Positions 1,254 through 31,722 of a stretch of 31,912 nucleotides of DNA are shown in pieces. A program made the translations under genes and the position numbers. Positions within the stretch are counted from its first letter, which is position 1. The number at the start of each line of letters is the position of its first letter. The DNA is taken from assembly GCA_041670605.1 (NCBI GenBank), contig JBAXYW010000001.1, positions 1 to 31,912 on the forward strand, read 5' to 3'. Source of the stretch: Lentisphaeria bacterium. GTDB taxonomy: Bacteria > Verrucomicrobiota > Lentisphaeria > Oligosphaerales > Oligosphaeraceae. The notes below the pieces were generated by a model, which searched no databases, was not told the DNA's origin, and was given only the letters and a program-made list of their open reading frames with translations.

Positions 1254-1410
1254 ATGAAACCGTCGAGAATTTGGCAATCCAGACAGTTTCATTGTTGATC
1301 TAAATATCGCGGGTGTCAAGCCTGCGGCCTGTTTATGCGAACCATTTTTTAAACGCATTACTCAGGGCGCAGGATTTATGCGCCCTGAAATTAGGTTAAC
1401 GGAGACTAAT

Positions 1411-4102: not shown

Positions 4103-4103
4103 C

Positions 4104-8244: not shown

Positions 8245-8290
8245 GATGGGTATCCATCAATCTCTTTTCTATTGGGTGAGGAATATGAAT

Positions 8291-13628: not shown

Positions 13629-13642
13629 TACAAAGGTAAACC

Positions 13643-15349: not shown

Positions 15350-16890
15350 AAGTTAAATCCCTAAACGAAATTACAAACCCAAAGCAATGGAAGAACCTTC
15401 CAATCTCAAAGCTGAAAGATTCAGGGTTCCCTGTGTATGGGGCAAACGGAATTATTGGTTTTTTTGACGAATACAATCATGCGAATCCCACCATCGCTAT
15501 TACATGCCGAGGCGCAACGTGCGGAAATATTCACATCACTCGTGAAAATTCCTATATCACTTCAAATGCGATGGCGCTTGATGACCTCGACGAAAACGAG
15601 TGCGAGCTAAATTATCTAGCACAGTACCTTCGATATCGTGGCTTGAGTGATGTAACGACGGGCGCAGCGCAGCCGCAAATAACCAGAGCAAATTTAGAAA
15701 AAGTAACAATACCCCTACCGCCCCTCGACGACCAAATCCGCATTGCCCATCTTCTCGGCAAAGTGGAAGGGCTGATCGCCCGGCGCAAACAGCACCTGCA
15801 ACAACTCGACGACCTGCTCAAGAGCGTGTTTCTGGAGATGTTTGGCGACCCGGTGAGGAATGAGAAGGGGTGGGTCACCAAAACGCTCCCTCAACTTGTT
15901 CTTCCAGGAAAGAATTCCTTAAAGCGGGGGCCATTCGGGGGAGCTCTAAAGAAGGAAATCTTTGTTGAGACGGGCTATTTGGTTTATGAACAAAACCACG
16001 CCCTAAACAATGATTATTCATTCGCAAGGTACTTTGTAACAGAGGAAAAATATCAAGAGTTAATCGACTTCAAAGTCGTGCCTGGAGATGTATTGATTAG
16101 CTGTTCGGGCGTCTATTTGGGAAAGCTATCTATAGTCCCTGCAGATGCGAAGCCTGGGATCATCAATCAGGCGCTACTTAAGGTTTCGTTGGATCCTCGA
16201 AAGATTCGGCATAGGTTCTTTGTTCATGTCTTTGGGAGTCCGCAGTTCAAAGGAAAATACTTCCCCTCAAATCGTGGTGGGGCTATACCGAACCTGCCGC
16301 CAATGTCGGTAATGAAGGAAATCCCGTTTATTTACCCGCCACTTGAGTTACAGCAGGATTTCACGGACCTTTTCGAAAAGGTGGAGTGGCTCAAGTCTCA
16401 GTACCAGCAAAGCCTCACCGATCTGGAGTCACTTTACGGCGTAGTGAGCCAGCAGGCATTCAAGGGTGAGCTGGATTTGTCGCGCGTACCGCTACCGACC
16501 ATGCCGCCCGAAGGAGAACAACCTATGGCTATCGAGCTATCACCACCACAGACCGAAGAAATCGCCATCAATCTGCCCGATAATGAATTAATGTTGATCG
16601 CACTGGAGAATCCAGAGCAACGCCCAGCACTGCTCGGCCACTGGCTGGAGGCTTATCGCGGGCAGCTCGGCGACGCCCCCTTTTCCTTGGAGCGCTTCAT
16701 GGCTGCCGCGCAAACCCGGCTCTCTGAATTGCATCCGGACACTGACTTTGAGTTGGGTTCTGACGACTACGAGCACATCAAGACATGGGCATTTGAGGCA
16801 CTGGCCTCCGGCAAATTGATGCAAGTACTTGACGATGACGAGAACCTAATTAAATTGCGCAAGCGATCTGATCAATGGGGAAGTTGGTAA
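15346..16890 (+). CDS. hsdS: Type I R-M specificity subunit S, two TRDs plus a ~138-aa C-terminal extension
   Basis: TRD1 (PVYGANG...AQPQIT), conserved PLPPLDDQIRIA...FLEMFGDP, TRD2, then PPLELQQDF...AFKGEL ending at 16473, followed by extra sequence. ATGA overlap with hsdM. Confidence 0.92.
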   Translation: MKVKSLNEITNPKQWKNLPISKLKDSGFPVYGANGIIGFFDEYNHANPTIAITCRGATCGNIHITRENSYITSNAMALDDLDENECELNYLAQYLRYRGLSDVTTGAAQPQITRANLEKVTIPLPPLDDQIRIAHLLGKVEGLIARRKQHLQQLDDLLKSVFLEMFGDPVRNEKGWVTKTLPQLVLPGKNSLKRGPFGGALKKEIFVETGYLVYEQNHALNNDYSFARYFVTEEKYQELIDFKVVPGDVLISCSGVYLGKLSIVPADAKPGIINQALLKVSLDPRKIRHRFFVHVFGSPQFKGKYFPSNRGGAIPNLPPMSVMKEIPFIYPPLELQQDFTDLFEKVEWLKSQYQQSLTDLESLYGVVSQQAFKGELDLSRVPLPTMPPEGEQPMAIELSPPQTEEIAINLPDNELMLIALENPEQRPALLGHWLEAYRGQLGDAPFSLERFMAAAQTRLSELHPDTDFELGSDDYEHIKTWAFEALASGKLMQVLDDDENLIKLRKRSDQWGSW

Positions 16891-16893
16891 GCG

Positions 16894-18690
16894 ATGAAAC
16901 TGCTGCGCCTCAAGATTACCGACCCGGCAGGATTTCGCAGCCTTACCTGTGGTTTTGAGCATCACTTCCGCACCGAATGGTCGTTACAGGAAGAACTGAC
17001 CAAGCCCGAAGGCTTCGCCCCCTTCGTCTGCGCCGGACCCAATGGCAGTGGCAAATCCAATCTGCTTGAGGCCCTGGCGGCGATTTTCTTTCAGTTGGAA
17101 ATATTGCGCGTGCGGCGCAGTTTTCTGCCAGAGGTGTTGCAAAGCGATGAGCTCGATTATTCTCCCAAAGGTTTCGAGCTGGACTACCTGATCCAAGTGC
17201 CGCCCGAATACATCAGACCAGATGGACAGGTGTGGGCTAAAGTTGGCGTATGGAAGAATCCTGGAGAATCCGTTCGATTGAATTGGGAGAATCAAGGTGA
17301 TTTCGATACCGATATATACGAGGTCTTCAGGGCTGGCTTTGCGGATATTTTGTTACCCCAATACGTGTTGGGATACTCGTCAGGCGAGAACGAAATCCTG
17401 AGCTTGCCATTCTTCAAGCTGCGCTTCGTGCAGTTCGACGAGTACTGGAATGCTCTGACCCGGCAGTTGCCTTATCCGGGGCACCCGGAAACTCGGCTGG
17501 CCTATCTCGACAATGGTTTTAGCCAAGCCATCCTGTTGTGTAATCTGCTATTTCAGGACGCCGCCACACTGCAACCCTTTCGCGAGGATATCGGCATTGA
17601 GGCGCTGCAGGAGTTTCGCATCATCATCAAGCGCAGCATTGAGGTTTCAGTCGACGTCGCCGAAGGTTTTATGGCGGGCGACTATGTCGAGAAAGGATAT
17701 GTTCAGGACGACTACACTACCTCAAATCCAGCACTGAGAAAGGATAGTGAATCCGGTCGCTACACCATCAATCTGATGCAGCTGCTGGAAGCTAGTTCAA
17801 ACTCCGCAAAGAATTTCGATCCCTTGGTCACCCGCCTGAGGCGCTGCGCCACGCTGAGTTATGTGGACGACGCGAACGACACGCTGATTCTTGACTTTTG
17901 GGTCAATGAAGAAACAAAAAAGGCATTCCGGGCCAATTTTGAAGATGACCCACTGATGCTGTTCCAGGCTTTTCAGGTGTTGCTGACACTCAATCTGTAT
18001 TCCGTGAGTGATGCGCTCAAGTCCGACCTGTACCGTTCCACCAGCCACTACGCCAGTGAAACGGTGCCGACGCTGGCGTCTGACCAGCGCATCATGCGCT
18101 TCAAGTTCGTGCGTTTCAGCAAACAGGGTGTGACACAGCCGATGATGCTCAAAGAATTGTCGGACGGCGAGCACCAGTTGCTGCACAGCCTGGGCTTGTG
18201 CCTGTTGTTTCGAGAGACCAATAGTCTGTTCCTGCTGGACGAGCCAGAGACTCACTTCAACCCAGACTGGCGCGCCAACTTCATCACCCGCCTGCGCCAG
18301 TGCCTCCCCGGTACGGGGAATGTGGGGCAGGAAATGCTGATCACCACCCACACGCCGTTTTTGATTTCGGACAGCAAACCGGACAAGGTGCTGGTGTTTA
18401 AGAAGGACAAAAGTACCGGTGAAGTCAGCATCAGCCGCCCGGAATACAACACGCTGGGGGCTTCGATCAACAAGATCACCATGAGCACCTTCGGCAAGCG
18501 TGAGACCATCGGTGGGTATGCGCAGGAAATTCTAGACCGGCTACGTACCCGCTTCGATGCCGGCAACGAAGAGGCATCCGTATTGATTGAAGAAATCAAC
18601 CACGAACTTGGTGACTCGGTGGAAAAAATCCTGTTGATCAAGGCCATTCTTGACAAGGTTGAGGGTCCGCAATCGGAGGGCAAAGGCTGA
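16894..18690 (+). CDS. Restriction-system-associated ABC/AAA ATPase (PtuA-like)
   Basis: Walker A GPNGSGKS, signature LSDGE, Walker B LLDEPETH, H-loop TTHTP. Starts 3 bp after hsdS. Confidence 0.88.
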   Translation: MKLLRLKITDPAGFRSLTCGFEHHFRTEWSLQEELTKPEGFAPFVCAGPNGSGKSNLLEALAAIFFQLEILRVRRSFLPEVLQSDELDYSPKGFELDYLIQVPPEYIRPDGQVWAKVGVWKNPGESVRLNWENQGDFDTDIYEVFRAGFADILLPQYVLGYSSGENEILSLPFFKLRFVQFDEYWNALTRQLPYPGHPETRLAYLDNGFSQAILLCNLLFQDAATLQPFREDIGIEALQEFRIIIKRSIEVSVDVAEGFMAGDYVEKGYVQDDYTTSNPALRKDSESGRYTINLMQLLEASSNSAKNFDPLVTRLRRCATLSYVDDANDTLILDFWVNEETKKAFRANFEDDPLMLFQAFQVLLTLNLYSVSDALKSDLYRSTSHYASETVPTLASDQRIMRFKFVRFSKQGVTQPMMLKELSDGEHQLLHSLGLCLLFRETNSLFLLDEPETHFNPDWRANFITRLRQCLPGTGNVGQEMLITTHTPFLISDSKPDKVLVFKKDKSTGEVSISRPEYNTLGASINKITMSTFGKRETIGGYAQEILDRLRTRFDAGNEEASVLIEEINHELGDSVEKILLIKAILDKVEGPQSEGKG

Positions 18691-19775
18691 TGCTGTTTGC
18701 CTACACCTACGTTCCGCACAAGATGGAGAGGATGCAAGAGTTCATCGACTTTATCTTTTTTGAGGTGTGGTGCAGAGCACCAATCGGCCTAGTCTTCCAC
18801 CCTGATCTTTTCGATGGCAATCCCGACCTCAAAGCAGTTATGTCAGAGTTCGGGTTTTCTGCGCGAGCGGCAGAGCGCGGAAAGACGTTTTATAAAGACG
18901 TGAAAGCAATCTACGAACTTTTTGCGCCACTCTCGGCACAGGAAATTGATCAATTCAAGCAGTGGTACCTGGGCAACAACGACATTGAGAAGGTTTGTGC
19001 GAACGATCCAGCTTCACCGCTCCTGCGCTACGTCGATATTCCGGCAGCCCACCAAGCCTTGAGCGAGCAGCTCGCGTCGTTCTTCAAAGGGCTGTATTCA
19101 TCGCTACTCGACCTAGTCGCACTTCAAGAAAAAATAGGCAACATCGACGATCACTACAAGACCTTCGTGCAGACCAACAAAGCAGGCAAGTGCCCGTTCT
19201 GTGGAATCAGTGACCTGTTCAGTGAGTATCACAGCAAGCGTGAGGCTTACGATCATTACTTGCCCAAGGCGTTATACCCGTTTAACTCGATCAATTTCCG
19301 AAATCTTGTCCCGGCTTGCCACCACTGCAACAGCAGCTACAAGACCAGTAAGGACCCAGCCTATCCGCCAAAAGACCCGGCGCGGGCGGCTCAGCGCCGC
19401 GCAGTCTTTTATCCCTACACGGCAACGCCCTATGCCATCGAACTGCAAGTGACTTTGCAAAATTCGGATATCGAAAAATTGACGCCGGCGGACGTCAACC
19501 TGCATTTTGGCCCTGCCTCCCTCGACGAAAAAATCGACACTTGGAAGGACGTGTACGGCATTGAAGAGCGCTACAAAGCCAAGTTCTGCAGTAGCGATGC
19601 ACTAGACTGGTTGGAGCAGGTTCGCATCTTGGATAGAGATCACAGTGTCGCGCCTACAGCCTACCTCGTCAGCCTCGAAGAGCAAGCACAAAAGTCTCCC
19701 GTCGCGAATTGCAATTTCCTCAAGAAGCCGTTTCTCGAAGCCTGTAACCAGATTGGCATCTTCGACGCCATGTAA
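18690..19775 (+). CDS. HNH endonuclease (PtuB-like, with a long N-terminal domain)
   Basis: CPFCG...DHYLPK..YP....NFRNLVPACHHCN; TGATG coupling to the ATPase. Confidence 0.85.
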   Translation: MLFAYTYVPHKMERMQEFIDFIFFEVWCRAPIGLVFHPDLFDGNPDLKAVMSEFGFSARAAERGKTFYKDVKAIYELFAPLSAQEIDQFKQWYLGNNDIEKVCANDPASPLLRYVDIPAAHQALSEQLASFFKGLYSSLLDLVALQEKIGNIDDHYKTFVQTNKAGKCPFCGISDLFSEYHSKREAYDHYLPKALYPFNSINFRNLVPACHHCNSSYKTSKDPAYPPKDPARAAQRRAVFYPYTATPYAIELQVTLQNSDIEKLTPADVNLHFGPASLDEKIDTWKDVYGIEERYKAKFCSSDALDWLEQVRILDRDHSVAPTAYLVSLEEQAQKSPVANCNFLKKPFLEACNQIGIFDAM

Positions 19776-20054: not shown

Positions 20055-21041
20055 ATGGGACGTGAAGGCCAATGGATCGACCAGCCTGTCGATCAAGCAA
20101 TAAATATCGCAAATTGGAGAGGTGATGATGAATTTGAAATTTATCCAGAGGGTGCACGCGACAAATCACTTCTGATAAGCCCAAATCAATCCAGATATGA
20201 TTTTCTGATCCCTGGTCATCGGTATTTATTCAAGCATGCTTTTCAGAAGGGAAAGCGGTGCCATCCTGATCAATTCTGGGCGGAAATCGTCGCCTATCGA
20301 ATTGGTTGCATGTTGGATGTGCCGGTGCCACCCGCTTTTGTAGCATATAATAGTGACAATAATGTTTGCGGCGCCTTGATCGAATGGTTTTTGAATTACC
20401 CCGATCAGCCAGAAGAGAGGCGGGTTCCTGGCGGCGACATTATGGTGGACATGATCCCAGGTTATGACCGTAAAAAGGGTAAGGAGCATAACTTTGTAAC
20501 CATAGCTCGTTATTTTGCGGTTGTAGATAGAAATTTCTCATTCGAACCCAATTGGCTAATTTTCTGGTGCGATATGCTCTTGTTTGACGCCATAATCGGT
20601 AACACGGATCGCCATCAGGACAATTGGGAATTGTTATGGAACCAAGTACAAGCTAGGCACGTCAGAATGTCGCCTGTTTTTGATAATGGCACGAGTCTTG
20701 GTTATGAAATATTGGAGTCGAAAATGGACGATTTCTACCAACCAGATAAAATGGCGGCCTACATCAGAAGAGGCAGACACCACCTTCGCTGGCAGTCAAA
20801 AGACGAACTGCAATGCCGGCATGTGGACCTCCTACTGGACTTAGCAGTAAAATTTCCAATGTTGAACGGTCGTATCAGAGAAAAACTGGCTTTATTTGAT
20901 CCCGATCGATTACGTTCTATCATGGAAAATTGCAGGCAATATTCCGTGCCGGTTCCATTAACCCAAAAACGTGCTGATTTTATTTGCCATTTAGTTATAT
21001 CCAGATATAGAACCATTGAAGCAGAAGTAAACCAACTGTAA
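20055..21041 (+). CDS. HipA-like/CtkA-like Ser/Thr kinase
   Basis: YLFK, WAEIVAYRIG, FDAIIGNTDRHQDNW (catalytic loop) and SPVFDNGTSLG (Mg-binding motif). Confidence 0.88.
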   Translation: MGREGQWIDQPVDQAINIANWRGDDEFEIYPEGARDKSLLISPNQSRYDFLIPGHRYLFKHAFQKGKRCHPDQFWAEIVAYRIGCMLDVPVPPAFVAYNSDNNVCGALIEWFLNYPDQPEERRVPGGDIMVDMIPGYDRKKGKEHNFVTIARYFAVVDRNFSFEPNWLIFWCDMLLFDAIIGNTDRHQDNWELLWNQVQARHVRMSPVFDNGTSLGYEILESKMDDFYQPDKMAAYIRRGRHHLRWQSKDELQCRHVDLLLDLAVKFPMLNGRIREKLALFDPDRLRSIMENCRQYSVPVPLTQKRADFICHLVISRYRTIEAEVNQL

Positions 21042-21763
21042 TGAACCTGATACGCCATGTTCACCAACCAAGCCGCTTGTTATTGGTTTGGCAATCACCA
21101 GAAGGCAAATCTCGGAAAAGATTTGTTGTTGGTGAGATATGCCTGATCGATGGTAATTGTGTGTTTCGCTATTTACCCAATACCGATGACTTTAACAATG
21201 CTTGTGTCGAAGGATTTATGTGCTATCCGGCATTTCGCAAGCTAAATCAGGAATACAGCGAGAATGTTTTAGAGACATTTTTGCGTCGTATACCTCCCAG
21301 AAGACGTGGCGATTTTAATAAATATCTTGAGCAATGGCGACTGGTACCCGATGCTGTTATATCTGACTTCGCGTTGCTAGGCCACACAGGAGCAAAATTG
21401 CCTAACGATGGCTTCTCACTAATAAATCCATTTGATGGCATTAGTGCACCGTATGAGTTTTACATTGAAGTAGCTGGCTTTCGTTATCAGAAAACCATTT
21501 CTTTAAACGATATTACAGTTGGAATGCCTGTTGCTTTTGTTGTTGAGCCGGAAAATGAACATGATCATCAAGCGGTGAAAATCGAGGTTATGGGTAGAAA
21601 AATTGGCTATGTAAATAAAGTTCAGAGTCCTGCCTTCATTCGTTGGTTAGATAGCAATATAGTTACTGGCGTAATTGAACGTATTAATGGAACCGAAGAT
21701 CGGCCTTTGATTTATATCTATGGCTGCGTTAGTTCTAAACATGCTGATCGGATTGCGGCTTAA
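21041..21763 (+). CDS. HIRAN-domain protein (N-terminal HipA-N/HipS-like region plus C-terminal HIRAN)
   Basis: VAGFRY...EPENEHDHQAVKI...KIGYV (HIRAN signature); N-terminal YPAF...FLRRIPPRRRGDF; TAATG coupling to the kinase. Confidence 0.85.
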   Translation: MNLIRHVHQPSRLLLVWQSPEGKSRKRFVVGEICLIDGNCVFRYLPNTDDFNNACVEGFMCYPAFRKLNQEYSENVLETFLRRIPPRRRGDFNKYLEQWRLVPDAVISDFALLGHTGAKLPNDGFSLINPFDGISAPYEFYIEVAGFRYQKTISLNDITVGMPVAFVVEPENEHDHQAVKIEVMGRKIGYVNKVQSPAFIRWLDSNIVTGVIERINGTEDRPLIYIYGCVSSKHADRIAA

Positions 21764-22459: not shown

Positions 22460-23464
22460 ATGGCCTATGAAAAACCTTGGAAAAGTTACGAAGACCAGTT
22501 GAATCAGTTGATTCAAAGAAGATTGGTCGTTACTCATAGAACTAAAGCTTTAGAATATCTCGAGCGGATTGGCTACTACCGCTTAAGTGGTTACTGGTTT
22601 CCCTTTCGTGAACGCAGTGGAACATGCTGTCCGCTAATCGCACCCATTGGCAGAAAGAAATTTAAACGTGGTGATACTGATCGGTTCGTGTTGGATACGT
22701 TTAAGGAGGGAGCCAGTTTTCAAAATGCCGTCAATTTATATGTGTTTGATAAGAAGCTGCGTTTGCTGACTATGGATGCGTTGGAGCGTATCGAGATTGG
22801 CTTACGGGTTGATATTTCGCATTCGCTCGGTAAAAAAGATTCATTCGCCTATCTGAAACCCGAGTTATTATTTGACGGTTTTGCGAAGAAACTCGATGAA
22901 AAAACGGGCTTAACAGAACATCACGAATGGCTGAGCAAACAAGCGGCGTTGATTTCCCGGTCAAAAGAGGAGTTTATCAAGCACAATAAATCCAAATATG
23001 GCTTTCCTTTGCCTATCTGGGTAGTCTGCGAAATCTGGGATTTCGGGACTATGTCTACTTTATTTGCTGGAATGATGGAAGTCGACCAAGATGCAATCGC
23101 TAAAAAATATGGGGTGAGTAACGGCCGTGTTTTTGCGTCTTGGTTGCGTAGCTTGAATTATCTGCGCAATGTATGTGCCCATCACAGTCGACTTTGGAAT
23201 CACAATATTGTTGATCAGCCCAAATTATCTCATTTAGGTGAAGTGACATGGATTGATCCATTCCATGGCAATGCCCCTCATAGTCTCGCCCGTCCTTTTT
23301 TATTGCTCTGCATCGCCAAGCACCTGCTGAGTATCATCAATCCATGCTCTGAATGGGGAAAGCGGCTGAAGTTGTTGCTTTTAGAGTTTCCCGATTTACA
23401 ACATTTGGGTCTGAACCTAGCTGGTATGGGTGTTATAGACGGTTGGGAACAGTGGGACTGGTGA
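22460..23464 (+). CDS. Abi family (Abi_2, AbiD/AbiF-like) HEPN RNase
   Basis: LERIGYYRLSGY, LY.FDKKLR...LERIEIGLR, P.W.V.E.WDFG, and the HEPN motif LRNVCAHHSRLWN. Confidence 0.9.
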   Translation: MAYEKPWKSYEDQLNQLIQRRLVVTHRTKALEYLERIGYYRLSGYWFPFRERSGTCCPLIAPIGRKKFKRGDTDRFVLDTFKEGASFQNAVNLYVFDKKLRLLTMDALERIEIGLRVDISHSLGKKDSFAYLKPELLFDGFAKKLDEKTGLTEHHEWLSKQAALISRSKEEFIKHNKSKYGFPLPIWVVCEIWDFGTMSTLFAGMMEVDQDAIAKKYGVSNGRVFASWLRSLNYLRNVCAHHSRLWNHNIVDQPKLSHLGEVTWIDPFHGNAPHSLARPFLLLCIAKHLLSIINPCSEWGKRLKLLLLEFPDLQHLGLNLAGMGVIDGWEQWDW

Positions 23465-23489
23465 TATGGAATACAAAACGGCAGGCAAT

Positions 23490-23550
23490 AAAAAACCCCT
23501 AGGCGGAGTAGCCGCCGAAGCAGCTAAACCGGAAGGGGCCGTGTTGGCGG
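23490..23550. ncRNA. Candidate structured small RNA downstream of abi (possible type III antitoxin)
   Basis: A6-CCCCT(23496-23500)...AGGGG(23534-23538) outer stem enclosing a GGCGG-agtag-CCGCC hairpin. On the minus strand it ends in stem+U6, with TTGACA (23581-23576)-N17-AAGAAT upstream. Confidence 0.45.
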
Positions 23551-23641
23551 GCATTCTTAATTAAACTTGGCCAATTGTCAAATATAACAATGAGATGAAC
23601 CGCTCATAATATCGATAAAATTTGGAAATAGCAATGCCTTA

Positions 23642-23689
23642 ACACTATATGTAGTGATTTTTAAAAATTTACATCACTATATAGAGAAA
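23642..23689. promoter_or_regulatory. Tandem NrdR-box-like sites
   Basis: ACACTATATGTAGTGA (23642-23657; 14/16 to acaCwAtATaTwGtgt) and TCACTATATAGAGAAA (23674-23689; 11/16), 32 bp apart start to start. Confidence 0.45.
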
Positions 23690-23928
23690 TACAGTTATCT
23701 CTAACTAGTTATCAAAATGAAGAATGAATGCCAACGCACACTATTTGGAATATTTGTCTTCGCCGCTGTTCGCAAACGCATCGGGGGCGAAATTCGCCAA
23801 AACAAGTTAAAACGTGCTTTTGTTAGCAAGGGACAAATACAATTCGAAGGTGTTAGCACTATTAAATTATAAAAGACAGCAAGGTCGCGTAGGCATCACA
23901 ACCTAAGCATGCCATTCAGGACATACAA

Positions 23929-26061
23929 ATGAGCTCAACAACCAATTTCCAGCAACTCGCCAATTTTATATGGTCGGTTGCTGATTTGCTACGAGGGCCT
24001 TATCGCCCACCACAGTACGAGCGCGTCATGCTGCCGCTGACTGTTTTGCGTCGCTTTGATGCTGTCCTTGCGCCGACCAAAGAAGCGGTTTTGCAAAGAT
24101 TTGATTCCTTGAAAGACAAAGATCGGCAATTGGTCGATCGGGTGCTCAACGAGCTGGCTAAGGATGAGGACGGTAAACCACTAGGGTTTCATAATCACAG
24201 CCAACTCGATTTCTACAAACTGAAGGGTGATCCGGATAACATTGGCCGACATCTCACCGACTATATCAACGGCTTTTCTGAAAACATCCGCAAGATCTTC
24301 GAGCGTTTTGAGTTCGAGAAAGAGATTGAAAAGCTGGAAGAGGCCAACCGCCTATACCAAGTGGTTGCTCAGTTTGCTGAGATGGACTTGCATCCTAAGC
24401 ACGTAGACAACATCACCATGGGGTTGGTGTTCGAGGATTTGATCAGGCGGTTCAACGAGGCGGCTAACGAAACAGCCGGTGATCATTTCACTCCGCGTGA
24501 GGTGATCCGGTTGATGGTCAACCTGTTGCTTGAACCAGACACACAAGTGCTCACACAGGAAGGCGTTATCGCCACGATTTGTGACCCTGCTTGCGGCACC
24601 GGTGGCATGCTGGCTGAAGCGCAAAATTGGATTCGTGCCCATAACGAACAGGCCACGGTTAAGGTCTATGGGCAAGACTATAATCCGCGCTCTTATGCCG
24701 TCGCCGCATCCGACCTGTTGATCAAGGGTCATCGCGATAGCCGCATCGAATACGGCAATACCCTGACCAACGATCAATTCCCGGATATGTGGTTCGACTA
24801 TTTGCTGGCCAACCCACCTTTTGGCGTGGACTGGAAAGGCGAGAAAAAAGAGATCGATCGCTGGCCGGATTTCTGCGGTTACAAAGGTAAGCTGCCGCGT
24901 ATCAACGACGGTGCGCTGCTGTTTTTGATACACATGATCGATAAATTCGCTGATTACGAACCGGGGAATAAAGATTTACCGGGTTCCCGCGCCTCCATCG
25001 TTTTTAACGGCTCTCCCCTCTTCACCGGTGGCGCCGGCAGCGGCGAAAGCGAAATACGCCGCTGGATCATCGAAAACGACTGGCTGGAAGCCATCGTCGC
25101 TCTGCCTGAACAGATGTTCTACAACACCGGCATCGGCACCTTCGTCTGGGTACTTAGTAACCGCAAGGAACAACATCGCAAAGGCAAGATACAACTGATC
25201 GACGCCCGCGAGCGCTGGACGCCGATGAAACGCAGCCTGGGCAACAAACGCCGCTATCTGGACGAAGCTGCCATTCATGAAATCACCCGCGAGCACGGCG
25301 CGATGACCCAATCTAATACCAGTAAGGTGTTCGACAATGCCGATTTTGGCTACCGGCGAGTGATTATCCAGCGCCCGTTACGTTTGCGTTTTCAACTGAC
25401 TCAAGAAGCCAAGGAACGCTATCTCGATGCCTGCCCGGAACTTTACAATGCGCTGGTCGCCGTGGAAGACAAACTTGGCCAGGAGGCTTATGACGATTGG
25501 AACAGCGTTTGGGAGCAAGCGCAGGACATTATCAAAGCCTTGCCGAACGACATAGAAGGCTGGGCCAAAGGCGCCAAAGGCACAGCTCAGAAAAAGTTGT
25601 TTCGTGACGCATTCACTGAGGTCGACCCCGAGGCCAAGCCGGTCGTTGCCAAACTGCACAAAGCCGATGCACCGGATACGGTGGCCTTGTTTCCCGGCCA
25701 GACTTTGCAGGAATTGCAATCCAATGTGCTGCATAGCTTGCTGGGCCAGTATGAGGCTGGCAAAGGTAAGTTTTACGAGTACGAAGCCGATCTGGCTCTG
25801 AAGGATTTTGAAAACATTCCGCTCAAAGAAGCTGTTATCAGCTACGTCGAAGGCGAAGTCTTGCCCTATGTTCGTGATGCTTGGATCGATCGCGAAGCCC
25901 TGGACGAACAGGATGGCGGTATCGGTACGGTGGGTTATGAAATCAACTTCAATGGAGAATTCCCGAAAGATAAGATTCAACGCTCTCTCCAAGAAATCGA
26001 TGCCGACTTAATCATGGTCGAAAGGCAAATTAATGAATTCTTGCGGAGGGCTTCACTGTGA
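23929..26061 (+). CDS. hsdM: Type I R-M methyltransferase subunit M (long form)
   Basis: FIWSVADLLRG, GDHFTPREVI, DPACGTGGML, NPPF, and C-terminal VGYEINF. Confidence 0.95.
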   Translation: MSSTTNFQQLANFIWSVADLLRGPYRPPQYERVMLPLTVLRRFDAVLAPTKEAVLQRFDSLKDKDRQLVDRVLNELAKDEDGKPLGFHNHSQLDFYKLKGDPDNIGRHLTDYINGFSENIRKIFERFEFEKEIEKLEEANRLYQVVAQFAEMDLHPKHVDNITMGLVFEDLIRRFNEAANETAGDHFTPREVIRLMVNLLLEPDTQVLTQEGVIATICDPACGTGGMLAEAQNWIRAHNEQATVKVYGQDYNPRSYAVAASDLLIKGHRDSRIEYGNTLTNDQFPDMWFDYLLANPPFGVDWKGEKKEIDRWPDFCGYKGKLPRINDGALLFLIHMIDKFADYEPGNKDLPGSRASIVFNGSPLFTGGAGSGESEIRRWIIENDWLEAIVALPEQMFYNTGIGTFVWVLSNRKEQHRKGKIQLIDARERWTPMKRSLGNKRRYLDEAAIHEITREHGAMTQSNTSKVFDNADFGYRRVIIQRPLRLRFQLTQEAKERYLDACPELYNALVAVEDKLGQEAYDDWNSVWEQAQDIIKALPNDIEGWAKGAKGTAQKKLFRDAFTEVDPEAKPVVAKLHKADAPDTVALFPGQTLQELQSNVLHSLLGQYEAGKGKFYEYEADLALKDFENIPLKEAVISYVEGEVLPYVRDAWIDREALDEQDGGIGTVGYEINFNGEFPKDKIQRSLQEIDADLIMVERQINEFLRRASL

Positions 26062-26633
26062 AGTACCAAATGACACGTGTTAAATACATTTGCCGACTCG
26101 GCTACGGTGACTCTCTTCCAAAAGATGAAGGCAGTGATGGTGATATTCCAGTGTTTGGCTCTAATGGACAATACACCACTACAGCAACACGAAATACTGA
26201 AGTACCGGCAATAGTTCTGGGCAGAAAAGGTTCCTATGGCAAGGTCAATTGGGCACCGAATGGATGCTTTGCATCAGATACCACATTCTTCATTGATAGC
26301 AGACTTACCTCAGAAAATTTGCGGTGGCTATATTGGGCTCTTCAAATTCTCAGGTTAGACGAAGGTTCCCAAGAAGCAGCAGTTCCAGGGCTGAACAGGG
26401 AAACCGTTTATGAGCAGCGCTTGCCTATTCCATCAGACATAAATCAGAAACTGATCGCCAACTATTTGGATCGAGAAATTGCGCGCATTGATTCAGCTCT
26501 TGATCTTGCCGGAAGCCGGTCAGCCATCAACTTCAAGGAAGGGTCGTTGTTAGCACTGCTCTTCGAGCGCCGTTCTGCGCTTATTACTGCCGCTGTCACT
26601 GGCCAGATTCCCATGGAGGAGATGGCAGGATGA
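26058..26633 (+). CDS. hsdS: Half-size type I specificity subunit (single TRD, 191 aa)
   Basis: One TRD (GDSLP...PVFGSNG...GRKGSYG...AVPGLN), then P....QKLIANYLDREIARID...ERRSALITAAVTGQI. GTGA and ATGA overlaps on both sides. Confidence 0.85.
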   Translation: MKYQMTRVKYICRLGYGDSLPKDEGSDGDIPVFGSNGQYTTTATRNTEVPAIVLGRKGSYGKVNWAPNGCFASDTTFFIDSRLTSENLRWLYWALQILRLDEGSQEAAVPGLNRETVYEQRLPIPSDINQKLIANYLDREIARIDSALDLAGSRSAINFKEGSLLALLFERRSALITAAVTGQIPMEEMAG

Positions 26634-28045
26634 AACTGAAAAGTTTAGGGCTGACAAATTTTCGGGGCTTTGATCGGCTGGATATAGATTTTGACGACCG
26701 GATGACTGTGATTGCAGGTGTCAATGGGGTTGGTAAATCAACAATCCTTCAAGCCATCGCAACGGCGTACTCCCACACCTTGCCGGAGTTTACTGTTTCG
26801 CGTGAGAAACCGTTGCCAATTCTTAACACAGACATCCAGCAAGGCAAATCCTCCTGCATCATCCAGATGGAAAGTACCGACTTGTCGGCAGCAAAGTTAA
26901 TCACTTTTCTTTCCAAGGAAAGCCTTAATCACAACGAAAAGCTTTCTCTTGAACACCAACAATCCCTAATGAAAAAGGAATTGCCTCTTCTTGAAAAAGG
27001 GTCGCCCGCTTACAAAAACCTGGATAATGAAATTACCTGGATCGACAAACGACTGGAGGGAAATTTCGAGAGTCGTTTAAACTGGCTATTTACCGATAAG
27101 CATGAATCAGAAGCGCAGCTGAAGCGGCACTGGAAGAACAGCCCAACTCAACCGCTTGTCATTTATTACTCGACAAACCGTTTGCTGTCGAGGTTGCCCC
27201 CAACACTTAAGAGTGAACTACCTTTCAAGCAGGCGGCTGCATTCGCAAAATCCCTGACACAGCTGGAAATATCACTCAACGAGTTCGCTAAATGGCACCG
27301 TGCCATGAATTCGCCTCGCGTAATTAGACAAGACAGTCAAGATGTTTCACGAATCCTGAATTTTCTTCAAGAGGCGATTACTGGCCTCATGCCCCAGATC
27401 AAAGAATTTTGGCTCCATGAGGGCCCCCCTCTTCGCTACTCGGTCATGAAAGACGCGACAATAGATGAGCAGGTGAACAACGGGAAAACAGGAAAGCAGC
27501 TGTTTTTTGAACAATTATCCGACGGAGAGCGTGGCTTGATTGCTCTGGTATTTGACCTTACTCGCCGCCTTGCCATTGCCAACCCGGACAGTGATAACCC
27601 CATTGCCGAAGGCGTGGCGCTGGTGTTGATCGACGAGGTCGAGTTGCACCTTCACCCCAAATGGCAGCGCGATGTACTTCCACGTTTGCGGGATATTTTC
27701 AAGGGCTGCCAGTTTGTTGTTACTACTCATTCGCCTCAGGTTATTGGTGAAGTTGAGGCGAAGTGTGTGCGTTTTTTAGAATACGTTGATGGCAAGGTTA
27801 GTGTCACCATTCCAACAGAAGCTTACGGTATCGATTCGAATCGCATCCTGCAGGAGTTCATGGGGGCTCCGGTGCGCAACCGGCAGGTGGACGGTCAATT
27901 GAAAGCTCTCTTCGATCTAATCGACCAAGAGCGTTTCGACGATGCTCGAGCAGCGATTGCGGATCTCGAAAGCAAGCTAGGTGAAGAGGAACCCGAACTC
28001 ACCCGTGCTAATTCGCTGATCCGCTTTCTGGAGGGGACCGAGTAG
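26630..28045 (+). CDS. ABC/AAA ATPase, PtuA (Septu)-like
   Basis: Walker A GVNGVGKS, LSDGE, LIDEVELHLHPKWQ, TTHSP, and a PtuA-type C-terminus GIDSNRIL...EPELTRA. Confidence 0.9.
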   Translation: MKLKSLGLTNFRGFDRLDIDFDDRMTVIAGVNGVGKSTILQAIATAYSHTLPEFTVSREKPLPILNTDIQQGKSSCIIQMESTDLSAAKLITFLSKESLNHNEKLSLEHQQSLMKKELPLLEKGSPAYKNLDNEITWIDKRLEGNFESRLNWLFTDKHESEAQLKRHWKNSPTQPLVIYYSTNRLLSRLPPTLKSELPFKQAAAFAKSLTQLEISLNEFAKWHRAMNSPRVIRQDSQDVSRILNFLQEAITGLMPQIKEFWLHEGPPLRYSVMKDATIDEQVNNGKTGKQLFFEQLSDGERGLIALVFDLTRRLAIANPDSDNPIAEGVALVLIDEVELHLHPKWQRDVLPRLRDIFKGCQFVVTTHSPQVIGEVEAKCVRFLEYVDGKVSVTIPTEAYGIDSNRILQEFMGAPVRNRQVDGQLKALFDLIDQERFDDARAAIADLESKLGEEEPELTRANSLIRFLEGTE

Positions 28046-28714
28046 ATGCGGACAATCTGTAAGGGCAACGAACCATCCTGTTTGACAAAACATCGGCAGC
28101 AACCACATTCGGATTACGATAACTACACCAATGAGATAGACGCCAATACTGGCAAGAAGATACCGAACACAGGTAAGGATGCCCTGCGACAGGCATTGGT
28201 GATGGAACAACGTGGGTTGTGTTGTTATTGTCAGTCCAGAATCCATCCGAATGAGGATAAAATGAAAATTGAGCACTGGCAGAGTCAGACTGGCTTTCCC
28301 CATCGCCAATTGGATTATAGCAACTTGCTGGGCGCGTGCCTTGGCGGTATAGGTCGCCCTAAGAAAGATCAGCATTGCGATACTCGGAAAGGCGATTCCG
28401 TCCTTTGTTTCAGCGTCAGTGACCCAGCCCACCCCATTGAACGACAAATCAAGTTCTTGGGTGATGGAAGTATTGCTTCTGGGGGTGCTGCGATCAACTC
28501 GGCCTTGAACGATGTGCTCAACCTCAACTCGCCACGCCTCGTGAGTAATCGCAAGGCAGTGCTCGACGCGTTCAAGCAACGACTGGGAAGGGGGAACCTT
28601 AATGCCGCGCAAGAGCTCAGGAAATGGGATGGTTCCCAAGCAGGTGATCTCCCTGAGTTTGCGCAGGTAATGGTGTTCTGGTTGGAAAAACGAATCGTAA
28701 GGCAAGCTCCATGA
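28046..28714 (+). CDS. HNH endonuclease, PtuB/TIGR02646-like
   Basis: LRQAL..EQRGLCCYCQ.RI...KIEHW..Q...LDYSNLLGAC...HCDTRKG. Confidence 0.88.
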   Translation: MRTICKGNEPSCLTKHRQQPHSDYDNYTNEIDANTGKKIPNTGKDALRQALVMEQRGLCCYCQSRIHPNEDKMKIEHWQSQTGFPHRQLDYSNLLGACLGGIGRPKKDQHCDTRKGDSVLCFSVSDPAHPIERQIKFLGDGSIASGGAAINSALNDVLNLNSPRLVSNRKAVLDAFKQRLGRGNLNAAQELRKWDGSQAGDLPEFAQVMVFWLEKRIVRQAP

Positions 28715-31700
28715 AGTCTACCTCCGAAGCAGCCTTCGAAACCGCCATTGAGTCAGCACTATTGGCCGATGGCTATCAACCGCTTCTATCCGGCTACTTC
28801 GACCGCGAGCGGGCCATTTTCCCTGAAGCGGCGCTGGATTTTATCCGCGAAACTCAAGCCAAGACCTGGGAGAAGCTGGAAGCGCTTCACGGTGACGAAA
28901 CCGGCGAACGGGTTTTGCAAGCCTTGTGCAAATGGCTGGATACCCATGGGGTTTTGTCCACCCTGCGCCATGGTTTCAAGTGCTTCGGCAAGACACTGCG
29001 TATCGCTTTTTTCCGCCCGGCGCACAGCCTTAATCCGGAACTGGAGACACGCTATAAAGCTAACCTCTTGGGCCTGACCCGGCAACTGTACTTCAGCCCG
29101 AAAAGTCAAAAATCGCTGGATGTGGTGTTGTCGGTCAACGGTATTCCGGTGGTAACGCTGGAGTTGAAAAACCCACTATCCGGCCAAACGGTGGCCAACG
29201 CCATTCATCAATATCGCCACGACCGCGACCCGCGCGAACTGATCTTTCAGTTTACCAAACGCACACTGGTACATTTTTCGGCGGATACCGAAGAAGCTCA
29301 TATGACAACTCGCTTGGCCGGAACCAGCACGCACTTTCTGCCTTTCAACAGAGGCAACCAGGGCGGCGCGGGCAACGAGCCAGACAAGGAAGGCCGTAAC
29401 TACAAAACAGCGTACTTATGGGAAGAGGTGCTGTCCCGTGACAGTTTGCTCGATCTGCTGGCACGTTTTCTTCATCTAAATATTGAGGAAAAAATGTCGG
29501 AGGATGGCAAAAAAATCCGTAAGGAAAGCATGATCTTTCCTCGCTATCACCAATTGCAAGCCGTGCGGCAAATGGTTAATTCGGCAGTGCGTGAGGGGGT
29601 TGGTCATAACTATTTAGTCGAGCATTCTGCCGGTAGCGGAAAGAGTAACACCATTGCCTGGCTGGCCCATCGATTGTCCAGTTTGCATAGTGCAACGGAC
29701 GAACGCATTTTTGACAGTGTTATCGTCATCACCGACCGGGTGGTACTTGATAGGCAATTGCAAAACACAATTTATCAATTCGATCATCGGCAAGGTGTCG
29801 TGCAAAAAATCGATGAAGATTCCCGGCAATTAGCGGAAGCGCTTGAATCCGCCGTGCCGATTATCATCACCACCTTACAGAAGTTTCCGTTTGTTTCCGG
29901 GCAGCTGGCAAAGTTGAACGAAGAGTGTGGCGAGACCGGTAGCCACTTACCCACACGACACTATGCGGTCATTATCGACGAGGCGCACAGTTCGCAATCC
30001 GGTGAAACTGCCACGGAACTTAAAGGGGTGCTTGGCGGAGCCGAACTGCGCCGTAAGGCTCAGGAACTGGCAAAAGAGGATGGTGAGGGTGAGTTGGAAC
30101 GGCTCTATCGTGCAATGGCTAAGCGCGGCCAGCAAGCCAATATGAGTTTTTTCGCTTTTACCGCTACGCCAAAGCATAAAACCCTGAAAATCTTTGGCCG
30201 AAATGGCGAACCGTTTCATCGTTATACGATGCGCCAAGCGATTGAGGAAGGGTTCATTGAAGATGTGTTGCGCAATTATGTTACCTACAAAACCTACTAT
30301 AAGCTGATCAAAAAAGCGGAAGATGATCCTAATGTAGAGCGCCAAAAAGCAGCCAAGGCGCTGGCTCGGTTCATGCGGCTGCACCCGCACAACATTGGGC
30401 AGAAGACGGAAGTGATCGTTGAACACTTTCAACACTTCACCCGGCACAAGATTGGTGGCCATGCCAAGGCTATGTTGGTAACCGGTTCGCGTCTGGAGGC
30501 AGTGCGTTATAAACAGGAGTTTGATCGTTATATCAAGGAAAAAGGCTATTCCATTAAGAGTTTGGTGGCATTTTCAGGTACTGTCGAAGATGACAAGTGT
30601 CCGGAAAAGACCTATACCGAAGTCGAAATGAACGATGGGCTAAAGGAAAAAGAGTTGCCGGATACCTTCGCGAAGCCGGACTTCCGGGTATTGTTGGTTG
30701 CTGAAAAATATCAGACGGGTTTTGATCAGCCACTGCTGCACACAATGTATGTGGATAAACGGCTTGCCGGTATCCAGGCCGTGCAAACCCTTTCTCGCCT
30801 CAATCGTACTCATCCGTTAAAGGACGATACATTTGTTTTGGATTTCGTTAACGACCCTGCCGAAATACAAGAGGCATTTCGCCAATATTACGAAGGGTCG
30901 GTAATGGGCGAAGACGTCGATCCTGACCGGCTCTATGAGGTAAAAGCAGAGCTTGATGCTTCATCGATTTATCTTCAAGAAGAAGTCGATGCGTTTGCCA
31001 AGGTGTTTTTTGCGCCTAAACGCCGCCAGAGTCCATCCGATCATAAAACGATGAATGCGATTTTGGATCAGGCTGTTGCCCGATTTACCGATTTGCAAAA
31101 ATCTGAAAATGAAGCAGCTGAACTTTGGCGTGGCAAAATTCAGGCATTTAGAAATCTGTATAGTTTTTTAAGCCAGGTCATTCCTTATCAGGACAGTGAC
31201 CTTGAAAAACTATTTACCTATTTACGTCATCTGGCGTTGAAGTTGCCGAAGCGAAAAACTGGAGCCGGTTACCAATTCGATGAAGAAATCGACCTGGAAT
31301 ACTATCGCTTACAAAAGATTAGTGAAGGATCTATTAGCCTCAATGAAGGGTATGCCAAACCGCTCGCTGGTCCACGAGAAGTTGGATCAGGCATGGTCAG
31401 AGAGGAACAGGTTTCGCTTTCCAGGCTTATTGATATTATCAACCAGCGCTTCGGCGGCGATTTAAACGAGGCCGATCAGTTGTTTTTCGACCAGATTACC
31501 GAGGCTGCCAGCCAGAATGAATCGTTGCGAAAAGCAGCTGAAGTGAATTCGCTGGATAAATTTCAGCTGGTATTCCGACAAGTGCTTGAGTCCTTATTTA
31601 TCGAGCGAATAGAACTGAACGAGGACTTGTTTACCGATTACATGAGTAAGCCGGATTTACGGGAGCTTGTCTCCAAATGGCTAGGAAGCCAGGTTTATGA

Positions 31701-31722
31701 AAGACTGTCTCAGTCGAAATAA
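28711..31722 (+). CDS. hsdR: Type I restriction endonuclease subunit R
   Basis: LDVVL.VNGIP...LELKN, FLPFN.G, PRYHQL, HSAGSGKSNTI, DEAHSSQ, FTATP, QTLSRLNR. Confidence 0.95.
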   Translation: MKSTSEAAFETAIESALLADGYQPLLSGYFDRERAIFPEAALDFIRETQAKTWEKLEALHGDETGERVLQALCKWLDTHGVLSTLRHGFKCFGKTLRIAFFRPAHSLNPELETRYKANLLGLTRQLYFSPKSQKSLDVVLSVNGIPVVTLELKNPLSGQTVANAIHQYRHDRDPRELIFQFTKRTLVHFSADTEEAHMTTRLAGTSTHFLPFNRGNQGGAGNEPDKEGRNYKTAYLWEEVLSRDSLLDLLARFLHLNIEEKMSEDGKKIRKESMIFPRYHQLQAVRQMVNSAVREGVGHNYLVEHSAGSGKSNTIAWLAHRLSSLHSATDERIFDSVIVITDRVVLDRQLQNTIYQFDHRQGVVQKIDEDSRQLAEALESAVPIIITTLQKFPFVSGQLAKLNEECGETGSHLPTRHYAVIIDEAHSSQSGETATELKGVLGGAELRRKAQELAKEDGEGELERLYRAMAKRGQQANMSFFAFTATPKHKTLKIFGRNGEPFHRYTMRQAIEEGFIEDVLRNYVTYKTYYKLIKKAEDDPNVERQKAAKALARFMRLHPHNIGQKTEVIVEHFQHFTRHKIGGHAKAMLVTGSRLEAVRYKQEFDRYIKEKGYSIKSLVAFSGTVEDDKCPEKTYTEVEMNDGLKEKELPDTFAKPDFRVLLVAEKYQTGFDQPLLHTMYVDKRLAGIQAVQTLSRLNRTHPLKDDTFVLDFVNDPAEIQEAFRQYYEGSVMGEDVDPDRLYEVKAELDASSIYLQEEVDAFAKVFFAPKRRQSPSDHKTMNAILDQAVARFTDLQKSENEAAELWRGKIQAFRNLYSFLSQVIPYQDSDLEKLFTYLRHLALKLPKRKTGAGYQFDEEIDLEYYRLQKISEGSISLNEGYAKPLAGPREVGSGMVREEQVSLSRLIDIINQRFGGDLNEADQLFFDQITEAASQNESLRKAAEVNSLDKFQLVFRQVLESLFIERIELNEDLFTDYMSKPDLRELVSKWLGSQVYERLSQSK

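Follow-up and report, generated by a model that had tools for sequence, protein, structure and literature searches.

The operon found at 23929-31722 on the + strand of the window, i.e., the whole stretch of 31,912 nucleotides analysed here, is probably an intact type I restriction-modification (R-M) operon in which a Septu of the stand-alone type is nested in the interval from hsdS to hsdR, the two forming defence layers without a necessary physical dependence. It consists of hsdM, a half-size hsdS, ptuA, ptuB and hsdR. A complete Septu thus lies between type I R-M genes in their own orientation, which is the nesting that marks embedded defence systems. The layout belongs to a kind of "defence system embedded in a defence system" that recurs and has been reported before. 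The details added here are one R-M-embedded clade of PtuA and the shuffling of its alleles among R-M backbones. Control of the nuclease by the R-M enzyme is putative, and none of the present results shows it.

Operon organisation and upstream region

The initial annotation had described a translationally coupled M-S-ATPase-HNH-R order, with a Septu-like PtuA/PtuB pair in the position that prrC takes in other type I operons. The order, the coupling and the prrC-equivalent placement of ptuAB between hsdS and hsdR hold, and the identities of the Septu and R-M genes are borne out by Pfam, PADLOC and PDB matches; the S subunit, on the other hand, is a half-size protein with a single target-recognition domain (TRD) and not a normal HsdS. 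The five ORFs agree exactly with the coordinates first assigned to them and are all co-oriented and open, with intact catalytic motifs. On the + strand, hsdM (23929..26061; 710 aa, the long form typical of this R-M family) encodes the type I methyltransferase subunit and is followed by the half-size hsdS (26058..26633; 191 aa), by ptuA (26630..28045; 471 aa) for a Septu ABC-type ATPase of the stand-alone type, by ptuB (28046..28714; 222 aa) for the Septu HNH nuclease and by hsdR (28711..31722; 1003 aa) for the type I restriction/translocase subunit.

The junctions throughout the operon are overlaps of 4 nt or abutments of 0 nt. The hsdM/hsdS junction is a 4-nt GTGA overlap, the start codon of hsdS being GTG, and both the hsdS/ptuA and the ptuB/hsdR junctions are ATGA overlaps. 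The ATG of ptuB directly follows the TAG of ptuA, which comes first, adjacent and co-oriented. Ribosome-binding sites of the GGAGG type precede hsdS, ptuA and ptuB. Since the five genes are co-oriented and translationally coupled, they are expected to be made together from the region upstream of hsdM.

This non-coding region (23465..23928, + strand), which we infer to hold the operon promoter, fills the 464-nt gap between abiD and hsdM. It contains an imperfect inverted repeat, I4, at 23645-23686 with 14-nt arms that are 86% complementary. Promoter-like hexamers at 23639-23695 are not more frequent than by chance, and promoter- or terminator-like sites within the operon show no excess over shuffled sequence. 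Neither a conserved regulator gene nor a conserved sequence was found upstream of hsdM in related loci. The operon is part of the defence cargo adjoining a Tn7-like transposition module; no Tn7 right end or terminal repeat common to the pre-tnsA region and the last 260 bases of the contig was detected.

Type I restriction-modification subunits

HsdM is matched by Pfam HsdM_N and N6_Mtase and by PADLOC MTase_I PDLC03029 (1e-251), and its AdoMet-binding and catalytic motifs are present (motif I DPACGTG at 219, motif IV NPPF at 295). HsdR gives Pfam HSDR_N, SWI2_SNF2, ResIII and T1R_D3 as well as TIGR00348 (3e-63); it carries a nuclease-like D137...E151-x-K153, Walker A GSGKS at 308 and DEAH at 423, and aligns with its relatives over the full length at 69-87% identity. 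An Hma system in place of type I R-M was considered and rejected, since HsdR gives type I models only and type I models lead for HsdM (the 25 best of the 33 matches listed).

Relatives of HsdM without PtuAB are also about 711 aa long and align with it end to end, so that the long HsdM is a trait of the family with or without PtuAB. A PtuAB-specific extra domain on HsdM was rejected on this ground. Such a domain on HsdS was rejected as well: the HsdS proteins of relatives are of normal length, and the conserved tail of HsdS corresponds to the ribosome-binding site of ptuA. The tail is conserved because the ptuA Shine-Dalgarno sequence overlaps it, the amino acids varying while the purine run is kept.

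HsdS (Pfam Methylase_S; PADLOC Specificity_I, 2.5e-29) comprises 191 aa compared with 403-498 aa in relatives. Its residues 6-181 align to residues 6-171 of a 403-aa relative with 66% identity, and its last 24 residues align to the C-terminal conserved repeat of the same protein. This alignment to both conserved repeats indicates an internal deletion between them. Only one TRD and one conserved region are present, not the two TRDs of type I systems, and with such a short HsdS the R-M part may not be of the standard kind; this counts against the explanation preferred here. One of the layers could even be inert, with a half HsdS unable to recognise DNA or with PtuAB as a decaying passenger, and have no present function. 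The shortening of HsdS by internal deletion speaks for an inert layer, which is nevertheless improbable: the five frames are open, their catalytic motifs are intact and the start/stop coupling is kept. Half-S forms also recur in the R-M family, one relative having HsdM fused to a single-TRD half S. In EcoDXXI and EcoR124I, truncated HsdS proteins form dimers with symmetric recognition sites. The half HsdS of the window presumably acts as a dimer.

PtuA and PtuB

PtuA is matched by PADLOC PDLC00271 (1.6e-120), by Pfam AAA_15/AAA_21/SMC_N and by PDB PtuA chains (1e-37 to 1e-40). Its ATPase motifs, namely Walker A GVNGVGKS at 30, the signature LSDGE at 296, Walker B LVLIDE at 331 and the H-loop THS at 366, are invariant across 13 relatives. 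PtuB is matched by PADLOC PDLC00322 (2.5e-68) and by PDB PtuB chains. The HNH protein, first proposed to be TIGR02646-like, scores 50.4 bits against TIGR02646, slightly below the cut-off of 52.15. Its motifs are CCYC at 59, E76-H77, N93 and HCD at 110; C59, Y61, E76, H77 and N93 are invariant in 14 relatives, and the catalytic His and Asn are present.

Judged by its sequence, PtuA is of the stand-alone Septu type. It starts level with the solved stand-alone PtuA 8EE4, the first residues of the two being aligned, whereas in the 550-aa retron PtuAs it is residue 66-67 that pairs with its residue 3; the 65-residue N-terminal extension of the latter is absent. [quoted passage not shown] PtuA reaches 259 bits against the 500-bit cut-off of the NCBIfam retron equivalog NF041760, and PtuB 102 bits against the 150-bit cut-off of NF041761. 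The signature motif of the window's PtuA has E (LSDGER), whereas 8EE4 has L and retron PtuA has Q at this residue.

The absence of a retron, also part of the initial annotation, was confirmed. No RT domain occurs among the window ORFs scanned, the Rfam search of the window gave nothing at the gathering score of any family, retron RNAs included, and RVT_1 has no match in a six-frame search of the whole assembly (593 contigs, 86% complete). It is very improbable that a retron elsewhere in the genome controls PtuAB in trans. An RT gene could be missing from an assembly of this completeness; against this stand the negative RVT_1 and retron RNA searches, the lack of the extension that contacts RT and ncRNA, and the equivalog cut-offs not reached by either protein. 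Moreover, between hsdM and hsdR of the related operons examined there is no unaccounted gene, the one exception being locus L144 with 3.7 kb of uncharacterised DNA between ptuB and hsdR.

Stand-alone Septu works without any retron (PMC12819146, PMC13096335) and defends alone, for which the Walker and HNH motifs are required (PMC13096335). As PtuA is of the stand-alone type and stand-alone Septu needs no retron, no lost inhibitor has to be accounted for, and a locus without a retron is no anomaly. The earlier suggestion that the R-M complex substitutes for the retron as inhibitor or sensor is accordingly not supported; it is further opposed by the unrelated defence genes found in the same slot and by the lack of a PtuAB-specific domain on HsdM and HsdS.

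Distribution and allele exchange

The R-M family is present in 63 of the 401 genomes sampled, and a full-length match to the window's PtuA in only two of these 401, its own genome included. In related operons, the hsdS/hsdR slot holds GmrSD, Shedu SduA, RhuM, KAP NTPase or Schlafen-like ATPase genes, or is empty. The hsdM/hsdS junction of the family is also used for cargo. For unrelated defence genes, the hsdS/hsdR junction of this family serves as a general landing slot.

In a survey of the gene order, as proposed initially, the R-M-embedded PtuAs form one clade whose members are R-M-flanked in 55/55 cases, compared with 0 of the 56 judged outside the clade. The clade lies always within this R-M family in two independent collections. 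PtuA identity to that of the window is only 37-78% where HsdR identity is 69-87%, and by AU tests the tree of PtuA conflicts with that of HsdR (p 2e-4 and 6e-67; rebuilt 20-row trees, with the HsdR clade taken from an earlier 37-row tree and the PtuA clade from a separate tree). These comparisons show that PtuAB alleles have been shuffled among far more conserved hsdM/hsdR backbones. None of the alleles moving between R-M backbones was seen outside such backbones. A RefSeq plasmid of Ketogulonicigenium vulgare is annotated with the same layout, and carriers of the operon in culture include Gluconobacter kanchanaburiensis NBRC 103587, Achromobacter insolitus LMG 6003, Pseudomonas sp. GM50 and the Ketogulonicigenium vulgare plasmids. 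No DNA match to ptuAB was found in complete E. coli genomes.

In a neighbouring PtuA lineage, HsdM-PtuA fusions (six clusters of about 900 aa) and an HsdS-PtuA fusion (one cluster of 872 aa) occur. No full-length HsdM-PtuA fusion was found on plasmids in the plasmid collection searched. Since such fusions exist, PtuA-like ATPases can probably work while physically joined to type I M/S subunits.

A Septu-like pair is also located in an unrelated type I R-M family on an Enterobacter plasmid, and a TIGR04435 pair sits behind R-M no. 1 of the same window. Septu-like pairs have thus entered type I operons on more than one occasion.

Two readings with dependence between the layers have to be weighed against this distribution. 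In the first, PtuAB is bound and held inactive by HsdM2S (or M2SR2) in the manner of PrrC or Ronin, and an anti-restriction protein releases it, causing death or arrest; in a variant, the M2S core would carry PtuAB as an alternative nuclease module. Minus the comparison with the retron, this is what the initial annotation had in mind; the reading is possible and is put forward tentatively. It draws on the confinement of the R-M-embedded PtuAs to one clade and one R-M family in both collections, on alleles that move among backbones and are never seen outside them, on the fusions in the neighbouring lineage and on the repeated entry of Septu-like pairs into type I operons. PrrC/EcoprrI with Stp, Ronin HsdMS with RonA and PARIS with Ocr serve as its precedents. 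In the second reading, the embedded Septu clade is an obligate partner, with PtuAB docking on the HsdM2S core either as an anti-restriction guard or as a second nuclease module sharing DNA recognition. It is suggested because the clade is found in the operon without exception, because allele exchange is confined to operons of this kind and because PtuA relatives are fused to HsdM or HsdS; as a whole it is rather doubtful.

The clade exclusivity, a PrrC-like pattern, could indeed reflect dependence rather than linkage, and the fusions can be taken, from their sequences, as a physical union with type I M/S subunits; both count against independent layers. However, the fusions fall outside the window's PtuA clade, and HsdM and HsdS of this R-M family bear no domain specific to PtuAB. 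PtuA alleles down to 37% identity stand beside nearly identical HsdR/HsdM with no sign of co-variation, and autonomous systems such as GmrSD and Shedu occupy the same slot. A single old insertion, then linkage and two later replacements, fits the HsdR tree, and the exclusivity of the clade therefore needs no functional dependence.

Comparison with known systems

Stand-alone Septu (8EE4/8EE7/8EEA; Septu Ec-B88) resembles the window's pair in having an ATPase of about 465 aa that starts at the ATPase core, followed by an adjacent HNH nuclease of about 220 aa, with the same motifs and no retron. Unlike it, the pair of the window has no apparent promoter of its own, is translationally coupled within a type I R-M operon and has a PtuA belonging to a clade found only in the R-M context. 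PtuA and PtuB of the type I-A retrons (Ec78/Eco7) are homologous to those of the window, which differ in lacking RT, ncRNA and the 65-aa PtuA extension and in scoring below the equivalog cut-offs.

According to the available text of Payne et al. (bioRxiv 10.1101/2024.01.29.577857), defence systems are embedded in type I R-M, BREX, DISARM and Hma, with Septu being common within Hma; the only known system named there as embedded in type I R-M is PrrC. In EPEC, DarTG2 lies between hsdS and hsdR, and this junction was suggested to be a recombination hotspot of defence systems (PMC12255303). The present operon is like those in these works (10.1101/2024.01.29.577857; PMC12255303): a complete system is nested in the same orientation in type I R-M, at an hsdS/hsdR hotspot of varied cargo. 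The clade-level exclusivity and allele shuffling found here do not appear in the text of these works consulted.

PrrC occurs almost exclusively within type I R-M (bioRxiv 10.1101/2024.01.29.577857), and the ptuAB of the window likewise lies between hsdS and hsdR in a clade confined to that context. In PrrC/EcoprrI, too, the hsdS-hsdR slot is used and an ABC-type ATPase controls a nuclease. PrrC, however, carries its ABC ATPase and, at the C-terminus, its anticodon nuclease on one polypeptide, whereas the window encodes two proteins with an HNH of the PtuB family; the PrrC family is absent among the best matches listed for the window proteins. PrrC is released by T4 Stp, while masking by the R-M enzyme is only putative for PtuAB. 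In Ronin, HsdM and HsdS are thought to hold the toxic RonA in check until an anti-restriction protein arrives (bioRxiv 10.1101/2023.04.06.535777). This logic of restraint by R-M-derived M and S subunits is what the initial annotation proposed for the window. Ronin differs in being without HsdR and in its effector, a 61-aa membrane protein, whereas the window has an intact HsdR and an ATPase/HNH pair as the effector.

Proposed function and significance

Under the preferred explanation of two independent layers, the R-M enzyme would be the first line and restrict unmethylated incoming DNA. PtuA and PtuB would assemble into a separate ATPase-nuclease complex like that of the solved stand-alone Septu, the assembly of which is PtuA6:PtuB2 and is inhibited by ATP (PMC12819146, PMC13096335). 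The complex would be quiet in healthy cells and switched on by infection; the trigger candidates published for Septu are a phage protein or a drop in ATP. Once activated, PtuAB may cut nucleic acid and stop the phages that escape restriction, DNA nicking and tRNA-Tyr cleavage being the activities reported for Septu. Embedding would then amount to co-expression and co-transfer of the two layers.

If the layers are independent, the operon adds to the documented examples of nested defence systems that are expressed together and move together on mobile elements; such examples help in annotating genomes and bear on the model of the hsdS/hsdR junction as a hotspot. If Septu depends on the restriction enzyme, the guard principle of PrrC and Ronin would extend to a very common family of ATPase-nucleases, and stand-alone Septu would gain a concrete trigger, which has so far been poorly defined. 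Given the exclusivity of the clade, its shuffled alleles and the fusions with HsdM or HsdS, the question of dependence is directly testable, and cultured carriers exist.

Composition of the operon

The five open reading frames proposed in the initial annotation (23929-31722, + strand) were found at precisely those coordinates, and their assignment to HsdM, HsdS, PtuA, PtuB and HsdR was supported by Pfam, PADLOC and NCBIfam. HsdM (710 aa) contains the HsdM_N and N6_Mtase domains (PADLOC MTase_I, 1e-251). PtuA consists of 471 aa (PADLOC, 1.6e-120), PtuB (28046-28714) of 222 aa (PADLOC, 2.5e-68; TIGR02646, 50.4 bits with the cut-off at 52.15) and HsdR of 1003 aa. The translational coupling was likewise as described, the junctions being, in order, GTGA, ATGA, TAG directly followed by ATG, and ATGA, with GGAGG-type ribosome-binding sites for the hsdS, ptuA and ptuB starts lying within the preceding gene. 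The catalytic motifs of the operon proteins are all intact; that either the restriction-modification (R-M) or the Septu layer is inert is considered improbable. Residues about 38-51 of PtuB form a 14-residue insertion absent from all 13 aligned relatives.

The S subunit is present as annotated but only half-size (26058-26633; 191 aa, Methylase_S). Over residues 6-181 it is 66% identical to a 403-aa relative, in a match that spans the first target-recognition domain (TRD) of that protein and its central conserved region; the last 24 residues align with the C-terminal conserved repeat of the same protein. These matches point to a deletion between the two conserved repeats that took out the second TRD. 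Half HsdS subunits can dimerise and recognise symmetric sites, and by analogy this one could act as a dimer on a symmetric site. In the Planctomycetota member Ca. Anammoximicrobium (locus L022, 7243-10011), HsdM is fused to a single-TRD half S (922 aa), with ptuA directly after.

Septu type and the absence of a retron

No Rfam family reached its gathering score within the window, and a six-frame search for RVT_1 found no reverse transcriptase in the whole assembly (593 contigs, 86% complete), which agrees with the retron-less arrangement noted initially. PtuA matches the solved PtuA chains at 1e-37 to 1e-40, and the first residues of the two proteins are paired when it is aligned with the 465-aa PtuA of stand-alone Septu (8EE4). 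Among retron PtuAs (550 aa), by contrast, it is residue 66-67 that corresponds to this start. Their N-terminal extension touches the reverse transcriptase and ncRNA, and they have acquired a helical flap and DNA-binding loops that are missing in stand-alone PtuA (PMC12819146). Both proteins score well under the cut-offs of the NCBIfam equivalog models for retron PtuA and PtuB. Stand-alone Septu protects unaided, requiring both the Walker and HNH motifs (PMC13096335). Given the alignment of the PtuA start, the low retron scores and this published autonomy, PtuAB is, judged by sequence and architecture, an ordinary stand-alone-type Septu. The proposal that the R-M complex fills a gap left by the retron is thus not supported, there being no gap to fill. 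The stand-alone type of PtuA and the lack of RVT_1 among the contigs of this 86%-complete assembly also make control by a retron acting in trans highly improbable.

Distribution of the five-gene layout

An alignment of PtuA relatives served as seed for a pattern scan covering one genome per species. This returned 80 loci, the open reading frames of which were searched with the window's own proteins. In 29 of the 80 the genes run M-S-PtuA-PtuB-R, as far as the contig extends, always with the same R-M family (29/29). The carriers belong to Pseudomonadota, Cyanobacteriota, Chlorobiota, Acidobacteriota, Gemmatimonadota, Planctomycetota, Verrucomicrobiota, Kiritimatiellota, Bacteroidota, Thermodesulfobacteriota and Myxococcota. 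In loci without a PtuB match, the slot is filled by a divergent PtuB-type HNH protein. Another 30 embedded loci came from scanning metagenome contigs.

A FastTree phylogeny was built from 149 full-length PtuAs drawn from the two scans. In it a single branch with 100% local support separates precisely the 55 R-M-flanked proteins from all others. Outside this clade, all 56 rows with enough flank have no R-M gene, a count that refers to the window's two R-M families, the only queries used, so that distant type I families beside these PtuAs may be missed. None of the 38 short-flank PtuAs falls inside the clade.

The M-S-PtuA-PtuB-R arrangement is common in public data and belongs to an already described class. 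One annotated example lies on a conjugative Ketogulonicigenium vulgare plasmid (HsdR 67% and PtuA 32% identical to the window's), where PtuB is named "retron system putative HNH endonuclease". In an unrelated type I family on an Enterobacter plasmid (L112), genes for an ATPase and a PtuB-like protein separate hsdS from hsdR; TnsD/Tn7-like genes adjoin that operon.

The type I family without Septu

The type I system of this family does not need Septu. Its HsdR is present in 63 of the 401 genomes sampled from the phylum; a full-length match to the window PtuA occurs in two, the window's own included, with HsdR adjoining in both. Four of 30 operons from this sample have hsdS directly beside hsdR. 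Several others hold GmrSD, Shedu SduA or RhuM (twice) between these genes, and further cargo includes a KAP NTPase with a partner, a Schlafen-like HATPase_c_4 protein and proteins without a family match. The hsdM/hsdS junction is likewise filled in several operons. The closest PtuAB-less relative (HsdR 84% identical) has an HATPase_c_4 protein between hsdS and hsdR (L082, 1-1485), a domain shared with the window's own Schlafen/AlbA_2 protein at 8985-10634. Such varied cargo fits the published "embedded defence" pattern (bioRxiv 10.1101/2024.01.29.577857) and agrees with the suggestion of a recombination hotspot for defence systems at the hsdS-hsdR junction, of which DarTG2 in EPEC is an example (PMC12255303).

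Operon history and allele shuffling

In the HsdR tree, every PtuAB-bearing operon falls into a single clade (24 rows, 100% support) in which two PtuAB-less operons are nested, so that a single ancient insertion, followed by loss or replacement, suffices. Within it, identity to the window is 69-87% for HsdR and 62-82% for HsdM, and only 37-78% for PtuA and 23-67% for PtuB. The closest PtuA and HsdR relatives of the window are from Pseudomonadota. The HsdR of L083 (genome G071, listed under the window genome's phylum) is identical to that of L019, a Pontiella sp. MAG (Kiritimatiellota). Transfer of the operon across phylum boundaries is evident.

The PtuA and HsdR trees are incongruent. Enforcing the HsdR clade on the PtuA data cost 644 log-likelihood units (AU p 2e-4) and the reverse constraint 436 units (p 6e-67), these p values being optimistic because the groups were chosen after viewing the trees. 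The tested HsdR clade came from an earlier 37-row tree and the PtuA clade from the PtuA tree; the tests were run on rebuilt 20-row trees. PtuA and PtuB types are also mixed, as in an Achromobacter locus (L045; PtuA 70%, PtuB 26%). Owing to this divergence, incongruence and mixing, the operon middle (hsdS TRDs, ptuA and ptuB) is regarded as a variable cassette, probably exchanged by recombination within the conserved hsdM and hsdR flanks. The pattern suggests diversifying pressure on PtuAB.

Surroundings on the contig

The window comprises an entire contig, at the start of which a Tn7-like transposition module (1378-7590) encodes a TnsA-like protein, TnsB (rve and Mu C-terminal domain), TnsC/TniB and two TniQ proteins, of which the second bears an HTH. 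Immediately behind this second tniQ and coupled to it are a His_Phos_1 histidine phosphatase family gene and a 147-aa open reading frame without a family match (7594-8689). A Schlafen/AlbA_2-HATPase_c_4 protein (8985-10634) precedes the first type I operon, hsdR-hsdM-hsdS with an EcoEI-type HsdR (10830-19775 including two trailing genes). The trailing genes, translationally coupled, encode a 598-aa member of TIGR04435, the "restriction system-associated AAA ATPase" family (791 bits), and a protein of 361 aa whose HNH core is PtuB/PDC-M01B-like. Two type I systems, each tied to an ATPase/HNH pair, are thus present on the contig. The order of the first is repeated on a Kovacikia minuta plasmid (L113).

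Further downstream are a coupled pair of the PADLOC candidate system PDC-M03 (20055-21763; a HipA-like kinase fold of 328 aa and a HIRAN protein of 240 aa) and, immediately upstream of the Septu-bearing operon, an AbiD/Abi_2 gene (22460-23464; PADLOC AbiD, 1e-62), around which G+C is about 41-43%, compared with about 50% for the operon. An imperfect inverted repeat (23645-23686; 14-nt arms, 86% complementary), which may be an operator, lies in the AT-rich stretch preceding hsdM, as does a 51-codon open reading frame (23717-23872) with no counterpart in related loci. As the defence genes all lie downstream of the Tn7-like module, they and the operon are probably its cargo; neither transposon end was located on the contig.

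Relationship between PtuAB and the R-M enzyme

The best reading is a type I R-M operon that houses and co-expresses a stand-alone-type Septu, the Septu probably acting as an independent second layer. The main alternative, a PrrC/Ronin-like dependence in which the R-M complex holds PtuAB, appears distinctly less probable. Bearing on it are fusions found among longer proteins: six clusters of HsdM-PtuA (about 900 aa; P0124-P0129) and one HsdS-PtuA (P0133, 872 aa). These show that PtuA-like ATPases can function as part of the same complex as type I M/S subunits. They keep the dependence model alive, but on a tree form a separate lineage outside the window's PtuA clade and so are not evidence for that clade in particular. 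The search also returned SAVED-PtuA fusions (P0121/P0123, 859 aa) and a PtuA-like ATPase fused to a type IIG-like methylase (P0130, 1771 aa).

Within the R-M family itself, no extra PtuAB-specific domain was seen on HsdS, which has 389-498 aa in relatives against 191 aa in the window. None was seen on HsdM either, the proteins (about 711 aa) aligning over their entire length whether or not PtuAB is present. A conserved tail of HsdS (...GQIP-x-EEM) overlies the GGAGGAG ribosome-binding site of ptuA; its residues vary (K/E/D) and the purine run is kept. Related loci have no conserved regulator upstream of hsdM. The lack of a PtuAB-specific domain speaks against dependence, and the probable recombination through the hsdM and hsdR flanks accounts for the confinement of the clade to this operon with no functional tie required. 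The points worth following are the exclusivity across the clade, the shuffling of alleles and the fusions of the neighbouring lineage.
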